Source of the DNA: an uncultured Gammaproteobacteria bacterium
GTDB taxonomy: Bacteria; Patescibacteriota; Microgenomatia; UBA8517
Length of the DNA stretch: 64,000 nucleotides
Reading direction: 5' to 3'
NCBI GenBank assembly: GCA_964494885.1
Contig: CAZBTH010000002.1
Span: forward strand, 29,271-93,270
Shown: piece by piece, positions 6,065 through 58,394 of the stretch
How the letters are laid out: every line of letters begins with the position of its first letter
Position numbering within the stretch: position 1 is the stretch's first letter
Made by a program: the position numbers and the translations under genes
Notes under the pieces: generated by a model
The model's input: the letters and a program-made list of their open reading frames with translations, nothing else
Database searches by the model: none
What the model was told of the DNA's origin: nothing

Positions 6065-6640
6065 ATGAAGAAAATATTAACCGTTCTATTGTCAGTTTTT
6101 ACTCTTTTGGCCTTCCAACTTGCCTTAATACCTGGGATAGCTTTTGCCGTTAATGACCCCGTTTTCCCTGCCTGTGCCAACCCCCAAGGAACATTGATCG
6201 CCTCATACGACAACGGCGTCCATGGAATTCCCGGCGACACAGGCACCTACAACGGAAGCGATAAGGTGTATAGCGTAACAGGAGATACCCTGATTCAATG
6301 TTTTTGCGCAGTAAATGGGAACGGGATCCAAACAAACTGGTGGAAAGTATCCTCACTTAGCCAAGATCAAATTGACGTTCTTAAATCTGAGGGGTGGACA
6401 TTTGTTCCCAACGGAATCGCCTGGGGGCTTGAAGACAGCGCCTACATGATTAAAAATGCAGGATATTCATGTGGAGGGACGGGTAACGGCGGATCAAACT
6501 CAAACTCCTCATCTGATTCCAATTCTTCAACTGGACAGGTTTTAGGTTTGGCATTCACGGGAAATATTATTTTTGTCTTTGCCTTTTTGGGGTTTGGGAT
6601 CTCTTCTCTTCTTCTCGGTCTTTATCTAAGTAGAAAATGA
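6065..6640 (+). CDS. Secreted surface protein with a C-terminal sortase-type sorting signal (LAFTG, TM segment, SRK tail)
   Basis: Signal peptide; Ser/Asn-rich linker; LAFTG motif followed by a hydrophobic segment and basic tail; immediately upstream of a sortase gene. Confidence 0.5.
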   Translation: MKKILTVLLSVFTLLAFQLALIPGIAFAVNDPVFPACANPQGTLIASYDNGVHGIPGDTGTYNGSDKVYSVTGDTLIQCFCAVNGNGIQTNWWKVSSLSQDQIDVLKSEGWTFVPNGIAWGLEDSAYMIKNAGYSCGGTGNGGSNSNSSSDSNSSTGQVLGLAFTGNIIFVFAFLGFGISSLLLGLYLSRK

Positions 6641-13911: not shown

Positions 13912-14010
13912 TCTTTATATCAAGAGGCGGCCAGGGACTAGCCCGATGACCCGCCAACAACCTCCTGAATTTAGTTCGGGAAAGGTGCTAAAACTAGAAC
14001 GATATGAAAA
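13912..14010 (+). promoter_or_regulatory. SAM-I (S-box) riboswitch in the metK leader
   Basis: TATCAAGAG-GCGGCCAGGGACTAGCCCGATGACCCGCCAACAACC matches the S-box core (UAUCAAGAG, AGGGACUGGCCCGAUGA, GCAACC) and GGTGCTAAAAC follows; the P1 3' strand GATATGAA includes the metK start codon. Confidence 0.8.
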
Positions 14011-15062
14011 ATATATTTTTAGATACTTTCAAAAATTACACTGTTGAATCCGTAACAAGCGGGCACCCCGATAAAATCTGCGACCAAGTTTCCGATGCTA
14101 TTCTGGATGAGTGTCTCCGTCAAGATCCCAAAAGTAGAGTTGCCATAGAAAGTTTTGGCGCGCACGGACTTTTTGTGATTGGCGGAGAAGTCACGACCAA
14201 TGCTAAGTTTGACGCAAAAAAAATTGCAGCCAGAGTTTACAAAGAAATAGGCCACCTTGATAAACTTAAATTTGTAACAAACATAATTAAACAATCCCCG
14301 GACATTGCCATGGGGGTAGATACAGGCGGGGCAGGGGACCAGGGCATTATGTACGGATTTGCGACTGACGAGACCCCCGAATATTTACCCAAAGCCGTTG
14401 CACTTGTTCACAAACTTACAAAAGGACTGGAAGACCTGAGAAGATCAAAAAAAATTAAATGGCTCCTCCCCGATGGCAAAGCCCAGGTCACAATAGAAAA
14501 TGGAAAAATCAAAACAGTTTTAGTTTCGGCACAACACAAGAAAGGTGTAAAGCTTGAACAAGTCCGCAAAGAAATTTCCGAAAAATTAATTAAAAAGCTT
14601 GTTCCTGGTATTAAAGACAAAAACATTTTGGTTAACCCTACAGGTAAATTTGAAGTCGGAGGGTTTATTGCCGATACGGGCTTAACCGGTAGAAAAATCA
14701 TGGTTGACTCTTACGGCGGTCTTATTCCACACGGCGGTGGAGCGTTTTCCGGAAAAGATCCTACAAAAGTGGACAGGAGTGGCGCCTACATGTGCCGATT
14801 TGTTGCTAAAAATCTGGTTGCAAAAGGCAAAGGCAAAAGTGTTCTGGTATCAGTTGCCTATGCTATCGGTAAAGCCGAACCTTTAATGGTCGATGCCAAA
14901 AACGAAAAGGGTAAAGATCTTTCAGACTACGTTAAAAAACATTTCGACTTTAAGCCCCTGGCAATTATCGAAAAACTAAAACTTAGAAGCCCCATTTATT
15001 CCCAAACCGCCGCCTATGGCCACTTCGGCAAAAAAGGCCTCCCTTGGGAAGAAATTGAATAA
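14004..15062 (+). CDS. metK: S-adenosylmethionine synthetase
   Basis: ESVTSGHPDKICDQVSDAILD N-terminus aligns to MetK; GGGAFSGKDPTKVDRSGAYMCR near the C-terminus. Confidence 0.9.
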   Translation: MKNIFLDTFKNYTVESVTSGHPDKICDQVSDAILDECLRQDPKSRVAIESFGAHGLFVIGGEVTTNAKFDAKKIAARVYKEIGHLDKLKFVTNIIKQSPDIAMGVDTGGAGDQGIMYGFATDETPEYLPKAVALVHKLTKGLEDLRRSKKIKWLLPDGKAQVTIENGKIKTVLVSAQHKKGVKLEQVRKEISEKLIKKLVPGIKDKNILVNPTGKFEVGGFIADTGLTGRKIMVDSYGGLIPHGGGAFSGKDPTKVDRSGAYMCRFVAKNLVAKGKGKSVLVSVAYAIGKAEPLMVDAKNEKGKDLSDYVKKHFDFKPLAIIEKLKLRSPIYSQTAAYGHFGKKGLPWEEIE

Positions 15063-36980: not shown

Positions 36981-36982
36981 TT

Positions 36983-37013
36983 GACAGGGTGCGACCCTGT
37001 CTGTCTTATCTTA
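36983..37013 (+). terminator. Rho-independent terminator (GACAGGGT-GCG-ACCCTGTC followed by a T-rich run)
   Basis: Perfect 8-bp stem, 3-nt loop, then TGTCTTATCTT. Confidence 0.55.
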
Positions 37014-37019
37014 TAATAC

Positions 37020-37048
37020 TTGACAAGCGCTAAAAGGTGTGATATCAT
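37020..37048 (+). promoter_or_regulatory. Sigma-70-type promoter TTGACA-N17-(TGa)TATCAT reading into the ORF-free region
   Basis: Consensus -35, 17-bp spacer, extended -10. Confidence 0.45.
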
Positions 37049-37532
37049 TCCCAAGTTGGATTTAATCCAGCACTCGCACATTTAATATCAGTTCGCAAGG
37101 CGCTTACGGGCCGCAACTTGCCAACCATTTATTGGTTGGCAGCTTTCGGTTCGCAAGTGTCATGCGGGAACTCGGTTGAAAAACCCTGTTCAACGTGGGC
37201 GGTGCCTACGTTTCAAAACCGGCAATGCGCGTTGCCTCCTTGACAGATGTATCGCCCAGCGATCATCTTAAAGCAGCCTCAACATGAGGTTTGGCAATAG
37301 CTAGTCCGTGATGCAGATCATTGACCTTGAGTAGGCCACCTGTTGTCTATCCATTATTTTTTGGAGAAACAGACTCCGGCTTACTGGCTTTGATTTTGCA
37401 TTTTGACGCTTGCGAACCGTTTTTTTAATAATTTCTAGGGGAAAGGACTGGATTCCTCTCTCAGATGTGTTTTGACCAATTTGCGGTCATTGCTTTCTGA
37501 GCTCAAAGAATCCTATTTATCCCCCTTTTATC

Positions 37533-37600
37533 CGAGCCCAGTTTTGGACTGAAACAACAAACATTTTTTTATATTGTTGTTTCTTTTCAGACTGGGCTCG
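37533..37600 (+). repeat. About 68-nt long imperfect hairpin / inverted repeat (CGAGCCCAGT ... ACTGGGCTCG with paired inner arms)
   Basis: 10-bp outer stem plus CTGAAA/TTTCAG and CAACAA/TTGTTG inner pairings around an A/T loop. Confidence 0.6.
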
Positions 37601-37640
37601 CTTACTTTTAGAGCCTAAATTTATCAAATAAATCCTTATT

Positions 37641-37668
37641 TGTTCTACTGTTCTAGAACAATAGAACA
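37641..37668. promoter_or_regulatory. 28-bp near-palindrome TGTTCTACTGTTCTAGAACAATAGAACA (four AGAAC/GTTCT half-sites), directly upstream of a promoter
   Basis: Perfect 12-bp core TGTTCTAGAACA; outer half-sites at 8-bp spacing; -35 TTGACA at 37677-37682 and -10 TATATA at 37699-37704. Confidence 0.5.
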
Positions 37669-37950
37669 CTTCAAATTTGACATAAAGATCAATGTTGTTA
37701 TATACTTCCCACAGTTAAATAAATCCGTTTGCATTGGAGTCACGATCCAAAATCCTCCTTCGCTAAAGCTACGGAAGGAGAACGGAGCCTCACAAAATTG
37801 AGGACGCAGGTCGAAGCGTAAGCAAAGCTTGGCGAATCCAAGCCCCGCTAAAAAAGAAGACAACCATTGTCATCCTGAGCAAATCGAATGGATAGAGATG
37901 GACCAAGAGATCAGTTCGCGCAAGCGGATTGGTAACAAAGAATGGGACCG

Positions 37951-38046
37951 CGGAGGTCGGAAGACCCTCGTTTCTTAAGCGAAGTTTAATGCTGAATTTA
38001 TTTCAGCATCTAAGGTACTTGGCTTGATGAACGAGGGTTTTTTGGT
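37951..38046 (+). terminator. Terminator (CCCTCGTT ... AACGAGGG plus T6) ending 9 nt before the 38055 start codon, with an overlapping alternative GNRA-capped hairpin (CGGAGGTC-GGAA-GACCCTCG): candidate attenuator or riboswitch expression platform
   Basis: 8-bp stem enclosing the sub-hairpin ATGCTGAA/TTCAGCAT, then TTTTTT; the upstream hairpin shares the CCCTCG strand, so the two structures are mutually exclusive. Confidence 0.45.
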
Positions 38047-38054
38047 GAAAAAAT

Positions 38055-39329
38055 ATGGAAAGCATCAATAGACAAAATGATTGGAAAAATGCAACCCCTT
38101 ACGGACGCGAAACCATCCAGGGGAGGTCGGAACGTGCATTGACACTTCCCCGCGAAGTTCTAGATCAATACAAAGAAACTGCCTCAGCCTTTGGTGCCTT
38201 TACCCAAACAGTTTTAGGAAACTGGGATTACATTTTAAAAGAAAGCCGTCTGGCTCAAATAATTTGGAGCAAATTTGGACCAGTTCAAAAAGCTTTATTC
38301 CGAAAGTCCTCAGAACAAATACTGGGCGGCATTCCGTATACGATCCGTTTTGACAGCACCCTAGGAGAAGACGGAAATGTAGCTATATTTGAACCTGAGA
38401 TTCAAAATTGCGGTGACGGTCCCTTGTTTCAAAAAATAAACGAATATGGCAGAGATTCAACCATTGGTAACACTGATTTGCTTCAGAAAATACAGGAGTA
38501 CCTTAAAGAAAAAGGTCCAATAGCTGTATCTAGATCCAGAGACAACATGACTTTCTATTGGCCTACAATTAAAACTTTGTCGCAAGCGATTAGAACATCC
38601 GGAATCGAAACAATTCCAGTGACGCTTGACGATCTGGAAATCTCTGAGAACGGAATTTTTTGGATCCCTGACGAAACATCTGAAAGTAAAGGTGAACTAT
38701 TAACCTCACCTACCTGGTACAAGATTAAAAGCGACCGTCTTAAAATACAGACCTTATATAACCAACTAGGCACAAAAGCAATATTTTTTCCCAACGACCA
38801 GGAGGTAGCTCTTTTTCAAACCTATCGCTTAAATAAAGTTGATATCTTTCCAACTCCAAATCCTCTAATCGCATCCAAAGCTATATTGGCTCTCATGTGG
38901 GATGAGCAAATCAGAGAAACTTTATTAAATATTGATACCAAATTAAATAAAGAAATACAGGCTTTAAGAACTTACGTTCCACCTTCGTTCATAGGAAAAT
39001 TGAATTGTCCCCCACCCAATCAAATCCTACCAGCCGTAATTAAACCGATTTTCGGCGCCAAGCAACAAGGAATCGAAATAATTGGTTTACCCAGACAACT
39101 TGAAAAAGTCAAACAAGATACAAACATGATTATCCAAAGGTGGGTCCAGCCTTATATTTGGAGATTCAAGATTGACGGAGAAGAGAAAAGATTCAAAACC
39201 AGACTCGAATCATTTTGCTGGATAGAAAACGGCCAAGGAATACCTGTAGATTTTCTCGCAACCGGATCAACTAGCGACATTGTTGGCGGTAACCGATATG
39301 GACCGATGACAACAGTATATTTTAAATAA
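38055..39329 (+). CDS. Glutathionylspermidine synthase-family (GspS/YgiC/YjfC-like) ATP-grasp ligase
   Basis: AVIKPIFGAKQQGIEII matches the YgiC VVKPIFSREGANVSII ATP-grasp strand; LIASKAILALMWDE matches the SNKALLPLLWE region. Confidence 0.55.
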   Translation: MESINRQNDWKNATPYGRETIQGRSERALTLPREVLDQYKETASAFGAFTQTVLGNWDYILKESRLAQIIWSKFGPVQKALFRKSSEQILGGIPYTIRFDSTLGEDGNVAIFEPEIQNCGDGPLFQKINEYGRDSTIGNTDLLQKIQEYLKEKGPIAVSRSRDNMTFYWPTIKTLSQAIRTSGIETIPVTLDDLEISENGIFWIPDETSESKGELLTSPTWYKIKSDRLKIQTLYNQLGTKAIFFPNDQEVALFQTYRLNKVDIFPTPNPLIASKAILALMWDEQIRETLLNIDTKLNKEIQALRTYVPPSFIGKLNCPPPNQILPAVIKPIFGAKQQGIEIIGLPRQLEKVKQDTNMIIQRWVQPYIWRFKIDGEEKRFKTRLESFCWIENGQGIPVDFLATGSTSDIVGGNRYGPMTTVYFK

Positions 39330-39334
39330 TAAAA

Positions 39335-39622
39335 ATGGGAGAAAGAAAAAGCTGGTCAACTGAAAACTATTCGGAAATACTGCCATATCTGAATGGTCCA
39401 AAAAAAACGATAGCAACTGTAGAATTAACCAGATCCCACACAACCATCGTTTACTGGATTCCACCTGACGGTAGGAATGAAGTAAGAGAATGCGATGATT
39501 GCAAAGAACAAGCTGAGTATTTATATTTTGATCAGGATCACACAATGCGATATTATCTAAGACTTTTTTGCAAAGATCATGCGTCCTACCCACTCTCGAG
39601 ATGGTTAAATGAAGAAAGATAA
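39335..39622 (+). CDS. Small Cys-containing hypothetical protein, overlapping the next gene by 14 bp
   Basis: CDDCK...FCKDH; ORF only. Confidence 0.3.
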   Translation: MGERKSWSTENYSEILPYLNGPKKTIATVELTRSHTTIVYWIPPDGRNEVRECDDCKEQAEYLYFDQDHTMRYYLRLFCKDHASYPLSRWLNEER

Positions 39623-56777: not shown

Positions 56778-57077
56778 TGATTTAAAGCGTTAAAAACGTG
56801 TGGTTTTCCCAACCTTGCTAACGTAACAATTCCCAAAGAAAGTGACATTAAATATTTTTACACTTTTCTGGAAACACTCGGGTCTATCTTTGGGCGTCGT
56901 ATTGAATTTTTGCAACTTCTGCTTCTGCTGCCTGTCTGATTTTCTTGCTCGCTTCGTCAGCGGCTGTTTGCCTTTGTTCAATAGCCAAACGATCAGCCTC
57001 ATCTTTAGTTTTTTGAGCCTCTCGGTCTATAGCCATCTTTTGTTGTCGTAGGTCTGTCATATGTTTCTGACTACGCA

Positions 57078-57329
57078 TTATAGCAGCCTGCTAATGACAA
57101 GGACTAAAAGTGAACCCGCAACTGCAACAAAGAAAGATGTTAAGTTAAAGCCGGTGACCCCGACTCCAAAAAATCTTTGTCCCAGATAACCACCCACAAC
57201 TGCTCCGATAATTCCCAAAATGATTGATCCAACAATTCCCCCCATTGAACTGGGAGAAATAAAATTGGCAATCGCCCCTGCGATAAGTCCAAAAATAACC
57301 CAATAAATAATTTCAGTCATATTTATCAC
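57078..57329 (-). CDS. GlsB/YeaQ/YmgE-family transglycosylase-associated membrane protein
   Basis: Gly-rich TM pattern GAIANFI...GGIVGSIILGIIGAVVGGYLG. Confidence 0.6.
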   Translation of the reverse strand: MINMTEIIYWVIFGLIAGAIANFISPSSMGGIVGSIILGIIGAVVGGYLGQRFFGVGVTGFNLTSFFVAVAGSLLVLVISRLL

Positions 57330-57333
57330 CCCC

Positions 57334-57528
57334 TTATTTTGTCTGATTAACGTTTACATCAATCTCACTGGGTATATTTACCTGCGGGGTTCCCATTTGT
57401 CTAAGCGCGGGAAGCCCATACACAAATCCCAGATAACCCAAAATAACCAAAACTACAATTACGACGATCATTCCCATGGGTCCACCTGAATTGTCGGAAG
57501 ACGGCGGATTATTTACAATAGTTGTCAT
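57334..57528 (-). CDS. Small membrane protein
   Basis: Single TM helix. Confidence 0.3.
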   Translation of the reverse strand: MTTIVNNPPSSDNSGGPMGMIVVIVVLVILGYLGFVYGLPALRQMGTPQVNIPSEIDVNVNQTK

Positions 57529-57608
57529 ATAATATTCACCTCTTTTCCAAAAAGGCTGGCATTTAAACCTTTAATTTTGATTCAAATGCCAAGTCCTTAC
57601 CCTAGAAC

Positions 57609-57872
57609 CTAAAGCTTGCTCTTAACAGCTTTCTTTGCCTCTTCAACCTTCTTCTCCCCTTGATTAACCACGTCCTTGGCCTGATCGGCAACACCCGATG
57701 CAACCTCTTCTACTTTATCCTTAACTTCACTAAACTTTTTACCAATTGCTTTCCGATTTCTCTCCTCGGAAAGAACAACTGCTGTTGCCCCTACTGCTGC
57801 TCCTACTACGGCTCCTACCACCCCAGCGGCAATAGGACTCATCCCTTTGTCATTATTTGCCATCTTTAACAC
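57609..57872 (-). CDS. Small stress-protein-like membrane protein (YtxH-like)
   Basis: Gly/Ala-rich TM helix plus a charged coiled tail. Confidence 0.35.
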   Translation of the reverse strand: MLKMANNDKGMSPIAAGVVGAVVGAAVGATAVVLSEERNRKAIGKKFSEVKDKVEEVASGVADQAKDVVNQGEKKVEEAKKAVKSKL

Positions 57873-58089
57873 CCCCCTTCTTTACGAACATGTCCTTCAA
57901 ATAAATAATTCCTTTTTTAATAAAATCCTTAAGTTCTTCTGCATCTTTTGCAATAGCGTCTACTTTTTCTAAAATTGAAGTTAGTTCTTTAAGAGTGTTG
58001 GAAAGGTTAAATGCCGAGTACGACACAAACCCTACCAGTACTAAAAATCCGATTGCCAAAGAGTAATTTAGAAGATCGTAAGAATTCAT
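57853..58089 (-). CDS. Small membrane protein (DUF948-like)
   Basis: N-terminal TM helix plus a charged helix. Confidence 0.3.
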   Translation of the reverse strand: MNSYDLLNYSLAIGFLVLVGFVSYSAFNLSNTLKELTSILEKVDAIAKDAEELKDFIKKGIIYLKDMFVKKGGVKDGK

Positions 58090-58097
58090 ACTCTTAG

Positions 58098-58394
58098 TTA
58101 TGTTGATTTTCCGGTAACTTCAAAAATACTTTTAATCTGGGGGTTTGTGACCTTGTAGAATATATTTTTACCTTGACGCCTAGACTTAACCAGCCCTGTA
58201 AGCCTTAATATTTTTAAATGTTGGGAGGTGTTAGATTTTCTGACCTTTAGAACTTTTGATAGTTCATTGACCGTAACTTCGAAATTCATAGTCATACTTA
58301 GAATTTCAAGTCTTTTGGAGTTGGCAATAGCTTTGAACAGTTCGGCCATTTGTTCATAAACTTTTGGTGTGTATGAAAGTTTATTTGTTACCAT
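58098..58394 (-). CDS. ArsR/SmtB-family HTH transcriptional regulator
   Basis: LFKAIANSKRLEILSMT...VNELSKVLKVRKSNTSQHLKILRLTGLV. Confidence 0.75.
   Translation of the reverse strand: MVTNKLSYTPKVYEQMAELFKAIANSKRLEILSMTMNFEVTVNELSKVLKVRKSNTSQHLKILRLTGLVKSRRQGKNIFYKVTNPQIKSIFEVTGKST

Follow-up and report, generated by a model that had tools for sequence, protein, structure and literature searches.

A predicted histidine T-box leader of variant architecture and a separate structured RNA module upstream of a hisS operon in Patescibacteria

Introduction

T-boxes are the classic tRNA-sensing riboswitches and are thought to be mainly Gram-positive; those acting on transcription are held to need a long Stem I that grips the tRNA elbow fast enough to beat RNA polymerase. 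Here, we analyzed the region 36981 to 38054 of a 64,000-nucleotide (nt) stretch of contig CAZBTH010000002.1 (assembly GCA_964494885.1; GTDB lineage Patescibacteriota, Microgenomatia, UBA8517), which is called the window below and whose own numbering is used throughout. The region lies directly upstream of an operon that includes hisS. It is a row of independent plus-strand transcription units rich in conserved RNA structure, and we regard it as very likely that these comprise a histidine (His) T-box leader and an independent structured small RNA (sRNA) module of separate transcription.

Translational T-boxes with an intermediate or ultrashort Stem I are described for Actinobacteria ileS and correspond to the "class II" of TBDB (Sherwood et al. 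2015, as cited in PMC7583486); the ultrashort Stem I belongs to these translational T-boxes (PMC7583486). TBDB was built from the Rfam model and from a class II model of Actinobacteria only (TBDB paper). A full-text literature search returned no paper naming the T-box together with the Candidate Phyla Radiation (CPR)/Patescibacteria, Saccharibacteria, Microgenomates, Parcubacteria or Woesebacteria, and the His T-box variant of Patescibacteria is apparently undescribed.

Compared with canonical class I T-boxes (RF00230; e.g., Bacillus subtilis tyrS and glyQS), the leader studied here and its relatives keep the same order of elements from Stem I to the antiterminator. They share a kink-turn (K-turn)-like Stem I base, a IIA/B pseudoknot with an F-box-like CCGUAA, a 7-nt bulge UGGNACC flanked by the helices A1 and A2, and a mutually exclusive intrinsic terminator; in addition, the specifier triplet matches the amino acid of the regulated genes, and an aminoacyl-tRNA synthetase operon is the predicted target of control. 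They differ in Stem I, which has about 17 to 25 nt instead of about 90 nt, presents the codon in a 7-nt terminal loop (G-U-CAC-G-A, similar to an anticodon loop) and not in an internal Specifier Loop with S-turn, and has neither the AG bulge nor the distal loop platform for the tRNA elbow. In Stem II, 5 base pairs (bp) close a conserved CAAAAU loop, IIA/B is separated from Stem III by an additional conserved stem (stem X), the T-box sequence is AGGAUGGGACCGCGG as against the canonical AGGGUGGNACCGCG, and family scores with the RF00230 model do not exceed 18.7 bits, the threshold being 93.

Like the Actinobacteria ileS T-boxes, the leaders have a short Stem I without the elbow-binding platform, retain Stem II and IIA/B and frequently carry insertions in A2, and the members from Saccharibacteria also sequester the Shine-Dalgarno sequence. 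Unlike them, at least 60 short-architecture members, the window copy included, end in a terminator with a U-run; the lineage is Patescibacteria, the specificity is His and not Ile, and stem X is extra. With the enterobacterial his leader-peptide attenuator the window element shares the principle that tRNA-His charging would set terminator read-through before His genes; it has, however, no leader open reading frame (ORF) and is predicted to read the tRNA directly.

Results

Architecture of the histidine leader

The elements of the leader are as follows.

37713-38043, plus strand: T-box leader, 330 nt
37724-37786, plus strand: ultrashort Stem I, basal helix 37724-37729/37781-37786
37734-37738/37746-37750, plus strand: specifier hairpin, 7-nt loop GUCACGA at 37739-37745 with the His codon CAC at 37741-37743
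37755-37780, plus strand: lineage-specific insert hairpin of Stem I
37788-37803, plus strand: Stem II (CCUCA-CAAAAU-UGAGG) with the family-conserved CAAAAU loop, 5/5 pairs compensatory
37804-37819, plus strand: Stem IIA, loop AGGUCGAA, followed by F-box-like GCGUAA
37826-37843, plus strand: insert hairpin in the IIA/B region
37859-37861, plus strand: pseudoknot strand IIB (GAC), pairing with GUC at 37810-37812
37864-37901, plus strand: stem X, extra to the canonical T-box plan, outer helix CCAU/AUGG, 7/9 pairs compensatory
37868-37871 and 37894-37897, plus strand: internal-loop strands of stem X, UGUC and AGAG
37872-37893, plus strand: inner hairpin of stem X
37910-37933, plus strand: Stem III with GCAA tetraloop, -12.9 kcal/mol, preceded by conserved AAGAG
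37938-37976, plus strand: antiterminator, -11 kcal/mol
37938-37942/37972-37976, plus strand: antiterminator helix A1, AAGAA/UUCUU
37943-37949, plus strand: T-box bulge UGGGACC, 7 nt
37950-37958/37963-37971, plus strand: antiterminator helix A2, capped by a GGAA loop
37959-38043, plus strand: terminator, 5′ arm GACCCUCGUUUC, inner hairpin, 3′ arm GAACGAGGG, U6 at 38038-38043, -43 kcal/mol

We are highly confident that this leader is a His T-box of a new variant type, an assignment that draws on anatomy, covariation, a covariance model built for this family and the company of His genes in the genomes. The antiterminator runs AAGAA-UGGGACC-GCGGAGGUC-GGAA-GACCCUCGU-UUCUU, so that A1 and A2 enclose a 7-nt bulge, which itself belonged to the pattern used to search for relatives. 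Since the 5′ arm of the terminator overlaps the 3′ strands of both A2 and A1, the two folds are mutually exclusive, and the difference in their energies is the usual T-box imbalance that tRNA stacking has to overcome. An earlier reading of this DNA, made from the sequence only, had already proposed a terminator/antiterminator switch with a GGAA-capped hairpin as alternative fold, and that hairpin is helix A2; the same reading dismissed a resemblance of GGGACCGCGG to the T-box motif as unconvincing, and this string turns out to be the real T-box bulge. RNAalifold paired the bulge in another way (GGGA with UCCU); we set this pairing aside for the canonical A1, because of the Rfam alignment and the double change from AAGGA/UCCUU to AAGAA/UUCUU, and it is possibly the tRNA-free state.

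In the proposed mechanism, the leader would control the operon by transcription attenuation. The anticodon GUG of tRNA-His would pair with CAC shown in the terminal loop of the ultrashort Stem I, and Stem II, the IIA/B pseudoknot and probably stem X would buttress the codon-anticodon contact. The 3′ end of an uncharged tRNA-His, C73-C74-C75-A76, would pair with UGGG of the bulge (37943-37946) and stabilize the weak antiterminator against the strong terminator, allowing RNA polymerase to read through U6 into the operon, whereas charged tRNA-His could not pair with the bulge and transcription would stop. Both tRNA binding and read-through are predictions. By this mechanism and by its core anatomy we file the leader as a T-box, not as a member of RF00230 as currently defined.

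A family of relatives in Patescibacteria

The 424-aa protein encoded first in the operon (aa, amino acids) has only two relatives among 5.8 billion proteins, always adjoining an M20 peptidase; when it was used as query in genome contigs, no confirmed related locus was obtained. One of the two belongs to the locus L001 (related loci carry L numbers), which is syntenic with the window (dnaB, lactamase_B, a 339-aa gene ... a 423-aa gene, M20, hisS). The intergenic region of L001 is without the first half of the window region but keeps a homolog of the second half, with a small ORF and a tRNA-His(GUG) gene behind it. Common to the window, L001 and L008 are the 5′ end AAUAAAUCCGU, the string AUGGGACCGCGG(G)AGGUC, a 5-bp hairpin with the loop GUCACGA on a covarying stem, and a terminator whose 5′ arm overlaps the preceding helix. 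The Rfam T-box model aligns end to end with L001 5383-5584 at 18.7 bits (threshold 93), matching the Stem I base, Stem II, IIA and Stem III and mapping AGGAUGGGACCGC onto AGGGUGGUACCGC.

A scan of one genome per GTDB species with the pattern AAGRATGGGACCGCGGRRG gave at least 119 loci; here and in all family counts below, numbers refer to the matches listed. About 110 of them are true members, with a matching 3′ strand CGUUCCUU, and almost all are Patescibacteria (Gottesman-, Davies-, Woese-, Levy- and Blackburnbacteria, WWE3, Parcubacteria and many Saccharibacteria). The family consensus starts with Stem I, AUAAAGCG-UUU-GA-[5 bp]-GUCACGA-[5 bp]-GA-GCU, which has a K-turn-like base and the codon in the terminal 7-nt loop. 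It is followed by a 5-bp hairpin with CAAAAU loop, then by IIA, ACGG-AAGUUGAA-CCGUAAAA, the loop of which pairs downstream as the IIA/B pseudoknot, and by stem X with its internal-loop strands UGUC/GGAG. AAGAG, Stem III and the antiterminator AAGGA-UGGGACC-GCGGGAGG-loop-CCUCUCGU-UCCUU complete the order.

Covariation was assessed on 36 nonredundant compact members from Patescibacteria, with the structure drawn by hand. In this alignment 93% of cells pair, as against 34 to 46% in slid controls, none of 500 shuffles reaches the observed values, and 31 of the 46 pairs have changes on both sides. The specifier hairpin helix contributes changes on both sides at all five pairs, and its loop motif GUCACG is invariant (36/36). 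IIA is 98% paired, the pseudoknot varies in concert across the family (GUUG/CAAC, GGAA/UUCC, GAUAAA/UUUAUC) and all three of its main pairs are compensatory, and U-C and G-A-G of the stem X internal loop are (nearly) invariant. Stem III is present as a 6- to 10-bp hairpin in all 36 relatives, formed from unrelated sequences, so that the pseudoknot/F-box and Stem III elements expected of a T-box were both found. In the antiterminator, A1 is AAGGA/UCCUU in most relatives and AAGAA/UUCUU in the window, L020 and L141 (a compensatory change), and A2 covaries as well (GGGAGG/CCUCUC, GGAAGG/CCUUUC). A covariance model (R1) built from the 36 relatives, with the window excluded, returned one match in the 64-kb window, 37717-37976 on the plus strand, over the full model length (60.6 bits, E value 5.3e-17).

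A canonical terminator is found in 68 of 112 members and in 60 of the 84 with compact architecture, the window included. The Saccharibacteria members show Shine-Dalgarno sequestration instead, with UCCUU pairing with AAGGAG. Some Saccharibacteria (L027, at 2609-2627 plus and 6111-6129 minus; also L034 and L104) carry two near-identical, divergent His T-box copies about 3.5 kb apart, one before hisG and the other before another gene, both with Shine-Dalgarno sequestration and no terminator.

In 86 of 99 distinct members (e.g., L080 5648-5836, minus strand), the apical loop of A2 reads GGUC(C/U) followed by U5-8. This sequence can pair with GGGACC of the bulge into a 4- to 7-bp hairpin (median -8.1 kcal/mol) with a U-run behind it, and one variant, GACCGC/GCGGUC, keeps the hairpin in another register. 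A mini-terminator or bulge sequestrator nested within the antiterminator is thus possible; A2 of the window lacks this nested hairpin and has the GGAA tetraloop instead.

In L010, L022 and L094 the T-box core AAGGAUGGGACCGCGGGAG is combined with a long Stem I whose internal loop (GAACACA) contains CAC, and their scores stay below the Rfam gathering score; they may link the canonical and the ultrashort forms. Their labels as "uncultured Gammaproteobacteria" (binchicken metagenome-assembled genomes [MAGs]) look doubtful.

Histidine specificity and regulated genes

The specifier triplet of the window is CAC (37741-37743), and hisS lies in the operon behind it. Of 111 family loci, 42 have HisG as their first downstream gene, 20 an M15 or M20 dipeptidase and 6 HisS; hisS occurs within 4.5 kb downstream in about 30 loci and an M20 peptidase in about 15. 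A tRNA-His(GUG) gene is located 90 to 330 nt downstream in 28 of 117 loci, e.g., at L021 370-441, L121 407-477 and L136 6923-6994; each of the 28 tRNA genes detected up to 900 nt downstream of members encodes tRNA-His(GUG), with no other tRNA among them. Because of these 28 loci, the riboswitch appears to control the gene of its own ligand. The tRNA-His of relatives has the discriminator C73, complementary to the G of UGGG, and therefore UGGG can pair with C73-C74-C75-A76.

At L139 4451-4495 and the equivalent position of L140, no T-box stands before hisS; found there are a promoter, a leader ORF of 14 codons (MTMNKTAVHHLKLT*, two of them neighboring His codons) and a terminator hairpin. To judge from this arrangement, the T-box at the same locus looks to have been replaced by a ribosome-mediated His attenuator.

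The operon of the window consists of the genes for the 424-aa orphan protein, a 95-aa protein, the M20 peptidase and hisS, of which the first two are listed here.

38055-39329: 424-aa orphan protein, first operon gene
39335-39622: 95-aa orphan protein, second operon gene

Pfam and PDB sequence searches with the 424-aa protein gave nothing significant, and the best Pfam E value of 0.2 does not bear out the label "ATP-grasp" previously given to it. The AlphaFold model, calculated from a 3-sequence alignment, is unusable (mean predicted local distance difference test [pLDDT] score of 41). Membership of the His regulon suggests for the 424-aa and 95-aa proteins a role in histidine supply. The operon ATG is at 38055, and the T-run of the leader terminator (38038-38043) ends 11 nt before it, not 9 nt as first counted.

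A separate structured RNA module, RNA1/D2

The 5′ two-thirds of the region hold the following elements.

37020-37048, plus strand: promoter P1 of RNA1, TTGACA-N17-TG-n-TATCAT, extended -10, 11/12 consensus positions
37055-37426, plus strand: RNA1, structured sRNA (z score -7.9, homologs, conserved pairing)
37055-37071, plus strand: RNA1 hairpin H1
37071-37088, plus strand: RNA1 conserved single-stranded stretch CACUCGCACAUUUAAUAU
37090-37098 and 37147-37162, plus strand: RNA1 direct repeats a and b
37102-37116 and 37404-37419, plus strand: RNA1 complements a′ and b′
37119-37141, plus strand: RNA1 hairpin H3
37163-37403, plus strand: RNA1 variable multi-hairpin core, including a GAAA-capped hairpin at 37166-37192
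37420-37426, plus strand: RNA1 U7
37403-37432, plus strand: weaker promoter-like site TTGACG-N18-AATAAT, 10/12 positions, overlapping b′
37434-37530, plus strand: D2, a conserved irregular hairpin of about 100 nt, conserved in L136, L137, L138 and L142
37533-37610, plus strand: long terminator hairpin (37533-37600) with U-rich tail, conserved in 7 genomes

The RNA1 module is likely an independent, unclassified structured sRNA and a genuine RNA gene. Homologs of RNA1 were located through the neighboring 336-aa protein: L136, L137, L138, L139, L140 and L142 have one each and L107 has two in tandem, i.e., eight copies in seven other genomes, among them the complete genome CP066686.1 of Candidatus Woesebacteria (L136). 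The P1 block, TATAATACTTGACA-N17-TGnTATnAT, is conserved upstream of every one of them. All copies share a 5′ domain of about 110 nt, in which H1 and the single-stranded stretch are followed by four segments: a and b are direct repeats of GUUCGCAAG, and a′ and b′ are their complements. Two pairings are consequently available. In pairing 1, a:a′, H3 and b:b′ form with 88% of cells paired, and in pairing 2, a:b′ encloses a 25-bp hairpin a′:b with 95% of cells paired; slid controls reach 22 to 41%. The core inside the closing helix ranges from about 95 nt (L142) to about 240 nt (window), and its first hairpins covary among close relatives. The two paralogs of L107 (minus strand, 5825-5490 and 5235-4640) each have a consensus promoter and a terminator hairpin, and the core of the second is much longer; RNA1 thus duplicates and expands like a gene family.

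D2 contains the helices AGGGG/CCCCU, GGAUUC/GAAUCC and CUCAGA/UCUGAG and an apical hairpin, UGACC...GGUCA, for which GUGAUC/GAUCAC is a compensatory alternative. There is no conserved ORF in D2: L137 has lost the ATG, and the window copy meets a stop after 3 codons. The promoter-like site overlapping b′ might start a separate D2 transcript, which is uncertain; its sequence is conserved in L136 and L138, and membership of the closing helix could explain this conservation. The long hairpin at 37533-37600 has changes on both sides at 9 of its 16 consensus pairs, and it is likely the 3′ end of the module. P1 would drive RNA1, D2 and then the long terminator hairpin as one unit from 37055 to about 37610.

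The module was seen only in a small Woesebacteria/Microgenomates clade. At E values up to 10, Rfam searches of four relatives and the compact L142 copy returned only hairpin noise of the microRNA (miRNA) type and a 9-bit RNaseP_nuc match in L142. A metagenome pattern scan with GGCAGCTTTNGGTNCGCAAGT gave 8 chance matches in coding DNA and no RNA1 homolog, and blastn of RNA1/D2 against phage genomes found no match. Like OLE, ROOL, GOLLD and raiA RNAs, RNA1 is several hundred nt long, multibranched and GC richer than its genome, with GNRA loops and a narrow phylogenetic range; unlike them, it has no match in Rfam 15, and it combines a conserved 5′ domain of about 110 nt, in which a repeat permits alternative pairing, with a variable core. 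We take RNA1 to be a putative trans-acting or scaffold RNA.

Relation of the two units and the stretch between them

Twelve syntenic loci (the window and 11 relatives) were compared. RNA1 and the T-box occur together in four (window, L136, L138 and L107), RNA1 only in four (L137, L139, L140 and L142), the T-box only in three (L001, L141 and L143), and neither in L144; the presence or absence of RNA1 is independent of that of the T-box. L001 and L142 both come from assembly GCA_040960375.1 and are differing versions of the syntenic block (54% versus 60% identity to the window proteins); this MAG probably mixes two related organisms.

Two elements occupy the stretch between the units, and a further one closes the upstream gene.

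37641-37668, no strand assigned: 28-bp palindrome with TGTTCTA half-sites, an inverted repeat directly upstream of the P2 -35 box
37677-37706, plus strand: promoter P2 of the T-box leader, TTGACA-N18-TATACT, 11/12 positions
36983-37001, T-rich tail to about 37013, plus strand: hairpin of 8 pairs (5 G-C) resembling an intrinsic terminator, assigned to the upstream 336-aa gene

From P2, transcription is inferred to start at about 37713, and relatives have a consensus promoter at equal distance from the conserved AAUAAAUCCG at the 5′ end of the T-box leader. The palindrome is real, with 14-nt arms that are 93% complementary, and may be an operator. It is peculiar to this genome, has no other copy in the window and was not found in L136 or L138; as a repeated operator it was rejected, the window holding a single copy. 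AAATAAATCC is duplicated at 37626 and 37717 and bounds a stretch of about 91 bp with the palindrome and the T-box promoter, in place of which L136 and L138 have an ordinary promoter; this ancestral promoter is positioned where the window has TTATCA. The duplication and the position of the ancestral promoter suggest an insertion that replaced the promoter.

Most of what the sequence-only reading listed for the region was recovered. The terminator of the upstream gene is kept in relatives through compensatory changes (the stem in L138 is GACAAGGGGCCCCCUUGUC, and G-C to A-U changes are compensatory), both promoters match 11 of 12 consensus positions, the first being conserved in all RNA1 homologs, and all listed hairpins are present, the 68-nt one with the conservation given above. 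Promoter-like sites as a class number 5 in the region as against 3.9 in shuffles, so that their total is not above shuffles. Its description as GC elevated was only partly true, because only RNA1 (47.8%) and the T-box leader (45.6%) are raised: the window as a whole has 39.4% and the region 43.0%, and the stretches between fall to 28 to 38% (D2 and terminator, 38.4%; palindrome and promoter stretch, 28%). On the plus strand, fold z scores against shuffles are -7.9 (37050-37420) and -6.6 (37710-38054), and on the minus strand they are weaker, -4.7 for both segments.

The absence of plus-strand ORFs of 60 aa or more was confirmed: the longest ORF is 53 aa on the plus strand and 72 aa on the minus strand, both with TTG starts. 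Translated similarity to relatives is present in all six frames and switches frame between homologs, and hence nothing in 36981-38054 is coding. The upstream neighbor is the 336-aa gene, with a weak Glucodextran_B match. At the gathering score, Rfam found in the whole window only a SAM (S-adenosylmethionine) riboswitch and tRNA-Leu, both outside the region, and at E values up to 10 only miRNA-like hairpin noise inside it; in the window, ARAGORN reported tRNA-Leu only and no transfer-messenger RNA (tmRNA). The SAM riboswitch (RF00162, 57.5 bits) is at 13914-14008, upstream of the ORF 14004-15062. The sole larger ORF-poor gap (no ORF of at least 100 aa), 56790-58394 on the minus strand, is filled by small genes (64 to 98 aa), including membrane-protein-like ORFs and an ArsR-like 98-aa ORF, and holds no RNA region.

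Discussion

Several observations weigh against the assignments made above. For the T-box, the Rfam model gives no match in the window even at E values up to 10, none of 16 typical relatives passes the RF00230 gathering score (93 bits), and Stem I has neither the specifier internal loop nor the distal platform that define class I. In the window copy, the IIA/B pseudoknot has only 3 bp (GUC/GAC), A2 carries an A-C mismatch, and the K-turn at the base of Stem I looks degenerate. The search pattern contained UGGGACC, and because of this the invariance of the bulge and A1 is partly by construction. No tRNA-His gene is present in the 64-kb window, so that C73 is known from relatives alone; moreover, C73 of tRNA-His has G-1 as its partner, from which the T-box G would face competition (TBDB paper), and a long Stem I is something that transcriptional T-boxes "generally require" (PMC7583486). 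As to RNA1, there are only nine copies, from about five lineages, and their covariation support is modest; the two alternative pairings may follow simply from the repeat; the 3′ end is uncertain because L139 and L140 do not keep the U7 after b′; and a search of the window for a target of the conserved single-stranded stretch found only the stretch itself.

The sequence-only reading had offered either ncRNAs (noncoding RNAs) or a cis-regulatory leader; both hold, each for a different part of the region, and what fails is their union in one architecture. A single long leader transcribed from P1, with RNA1 and D2 as tandem sensors before the hisS operon, would account for the common strand of all elements, for their constant place between the 336-aa gene and the hisS leader, and for the attenuator-like four-segment pairing of RNA1 with a U-run after b′. 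However, RNA1 occurs without a T-box in four of the syntenic loci and the T-box without RNA1 in three, a covarying, conserved terminator hairpin and a separate near-consensus promoter stand between the units, the tandem copies of L107 each have their own promoter and terminator, and the RNA1 core is variable, unlike a ligand-binding aptamer; we therefore consider a single leader improbable. It is less probable still that the 3′ element is derived from a T-box but unresponsive to tRNA, or is an attenuator for a protein or small molecule, with the CAC loop and UGGG bulge as relics. The subthreshold score with the Rfam model, the missing elbow-binding platform and the peculiarities of the window copy (extra inserts, the 3-bp pseudoknot, no U-rich A2 loop of the kind seen in 86/99 relatives among the matches listed) would agree with it, but clear purifying and compensatory selection acts in more than 100 genomes on GUCACG, the bulge, the pseudoknot, stem X and Stem III, the element is strictly linked to His genes and tRNA-His genes, and T-boxes with ultrashort Stem I are functional in Actinobacteria (PMC7583486).

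Equally slight is the chance that RNA1 is a strongly diverged housekeeping RNA (RNase P RNA, 6S RNA, tmRNA or signal recognition particle [SRP] RNA) missed by standard models. Bacterial RNase P RNA has the P4 pseudoknot formed by conserved regions I and V (CR-I, GGAAAGUCCGG; CR-V, ACAGAAnnCGGCUUA) with the specificity domain between them and is a single essential copy; tmRNA has a tRNA-like domain and a tag ORF, SRP RNA a GGAA loop with symmetric loop in domain IV, and 6S RNA a rod with a central bubble. The strong consensus promoter of RNA1, its length of 370 to 560 nt, conserved syntenic position and long-range closing helix would suit such an RNA, ACAGACUCCGGCUUAC (37371-37386) resembles CR-V, AGUCCG (37303-37308) could form a P4-like helix with a bulged U, and L142 has GGGUAAAGUCCGGG as well as the 9-bit RNaseP_nuc match. 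Against this, the window and five relatives have no bacterial RNase P, 6S, SRP or tmRNA match at E values up to 10, ARAGORN finds no tmRNA, the conserved part is the 5′ domain and not the core, and RNA1 is duplicated in L107 and absent from the close relatives L141, L143 and L144. In L136, L138 and L142 the CR-I/CR-V-like strings, which in the window lie about 65 nt from each other, are not conserved and the P4 partner is missing; this lack of conservation led us to reject the manual reading of RNA1 as RNase P RNA, and with it the resemblance noted earlier. The look-alikes of SRP and 6S RNA were rejected on the same ground. The supposed SRP motif CGGAAGGA sits in the lineage-specific insert hairpin of T-box Stem I; RNA1/D2 has no Rfam match to tmRNA, SRP RNA or 6S RNA at E values up to 10, and its predicted folds are multibranched. 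Nor does Rfam at this cutoff assign the whole region to any such family. That the region is decayed coding sequence, or random AT-poor spacer that merely looks hairpin rich, we consider already refuted: stop-to-stop frames of 50 to 56 aa do occur in the D2 region of L136, L137 and L138, but homolog similarity lies in all six frames with frame switching and no consistent reading frame, the sole ATG-initiated frame is lost in L137 and cut after 3 codons in the window, and the fold z scores (-6.6 to -7.9) and covariation speak for RNA.

With a His T-box leader and a separate RNA1/D2 module as the preferred reading, a further step can be proposed tentatively, as something possible that may well prove wrong: that the His leaders of Patescibacteria form a third architectural class of T-boxes and that RNA1/D2 is a new structured RNA class. 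Such T-boxes would capture tRNA cotranscriptionally without an elbow-binding platform, using the anticodon-loop-like specifier hairpin and stem X instead, and the nested mini-hairpin (86 of 99 members among the matches listed, not the window) would sequester the UGGGACC bulge and set an earlier decision point; we know of no decision point of this kind in known T-boxes. RNA1/D2 would consist of a repeat-encoded bistable 5′ domain and an expandable core. To our knowledge, almost no ncRNAs are known in its host lineage, and RNA1/D2 adds to them a conserved, unclassified RNA that looks strongly expressed.

The family in Microgenomates, Parcubacteria and Saccharibacteria would break the long-Stem-I rule, as it keeps the sensing core with an ultrashort Stem I and ordinary terminators, and what replaces the elbow contact becomes a testable question, for which stem X and the conserved loop of Stem II are candidate answers. 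Because the standard model does not detect the family, the annotation of these reduced genomes currently lacks His regulation. The family would define a His regulon comprising the hisG operon, hisS, M15/M20 dipeptidases, tRNA-His and orphans such as the 424-aa protein, and this regulon would give functional leads for unknown proteins.

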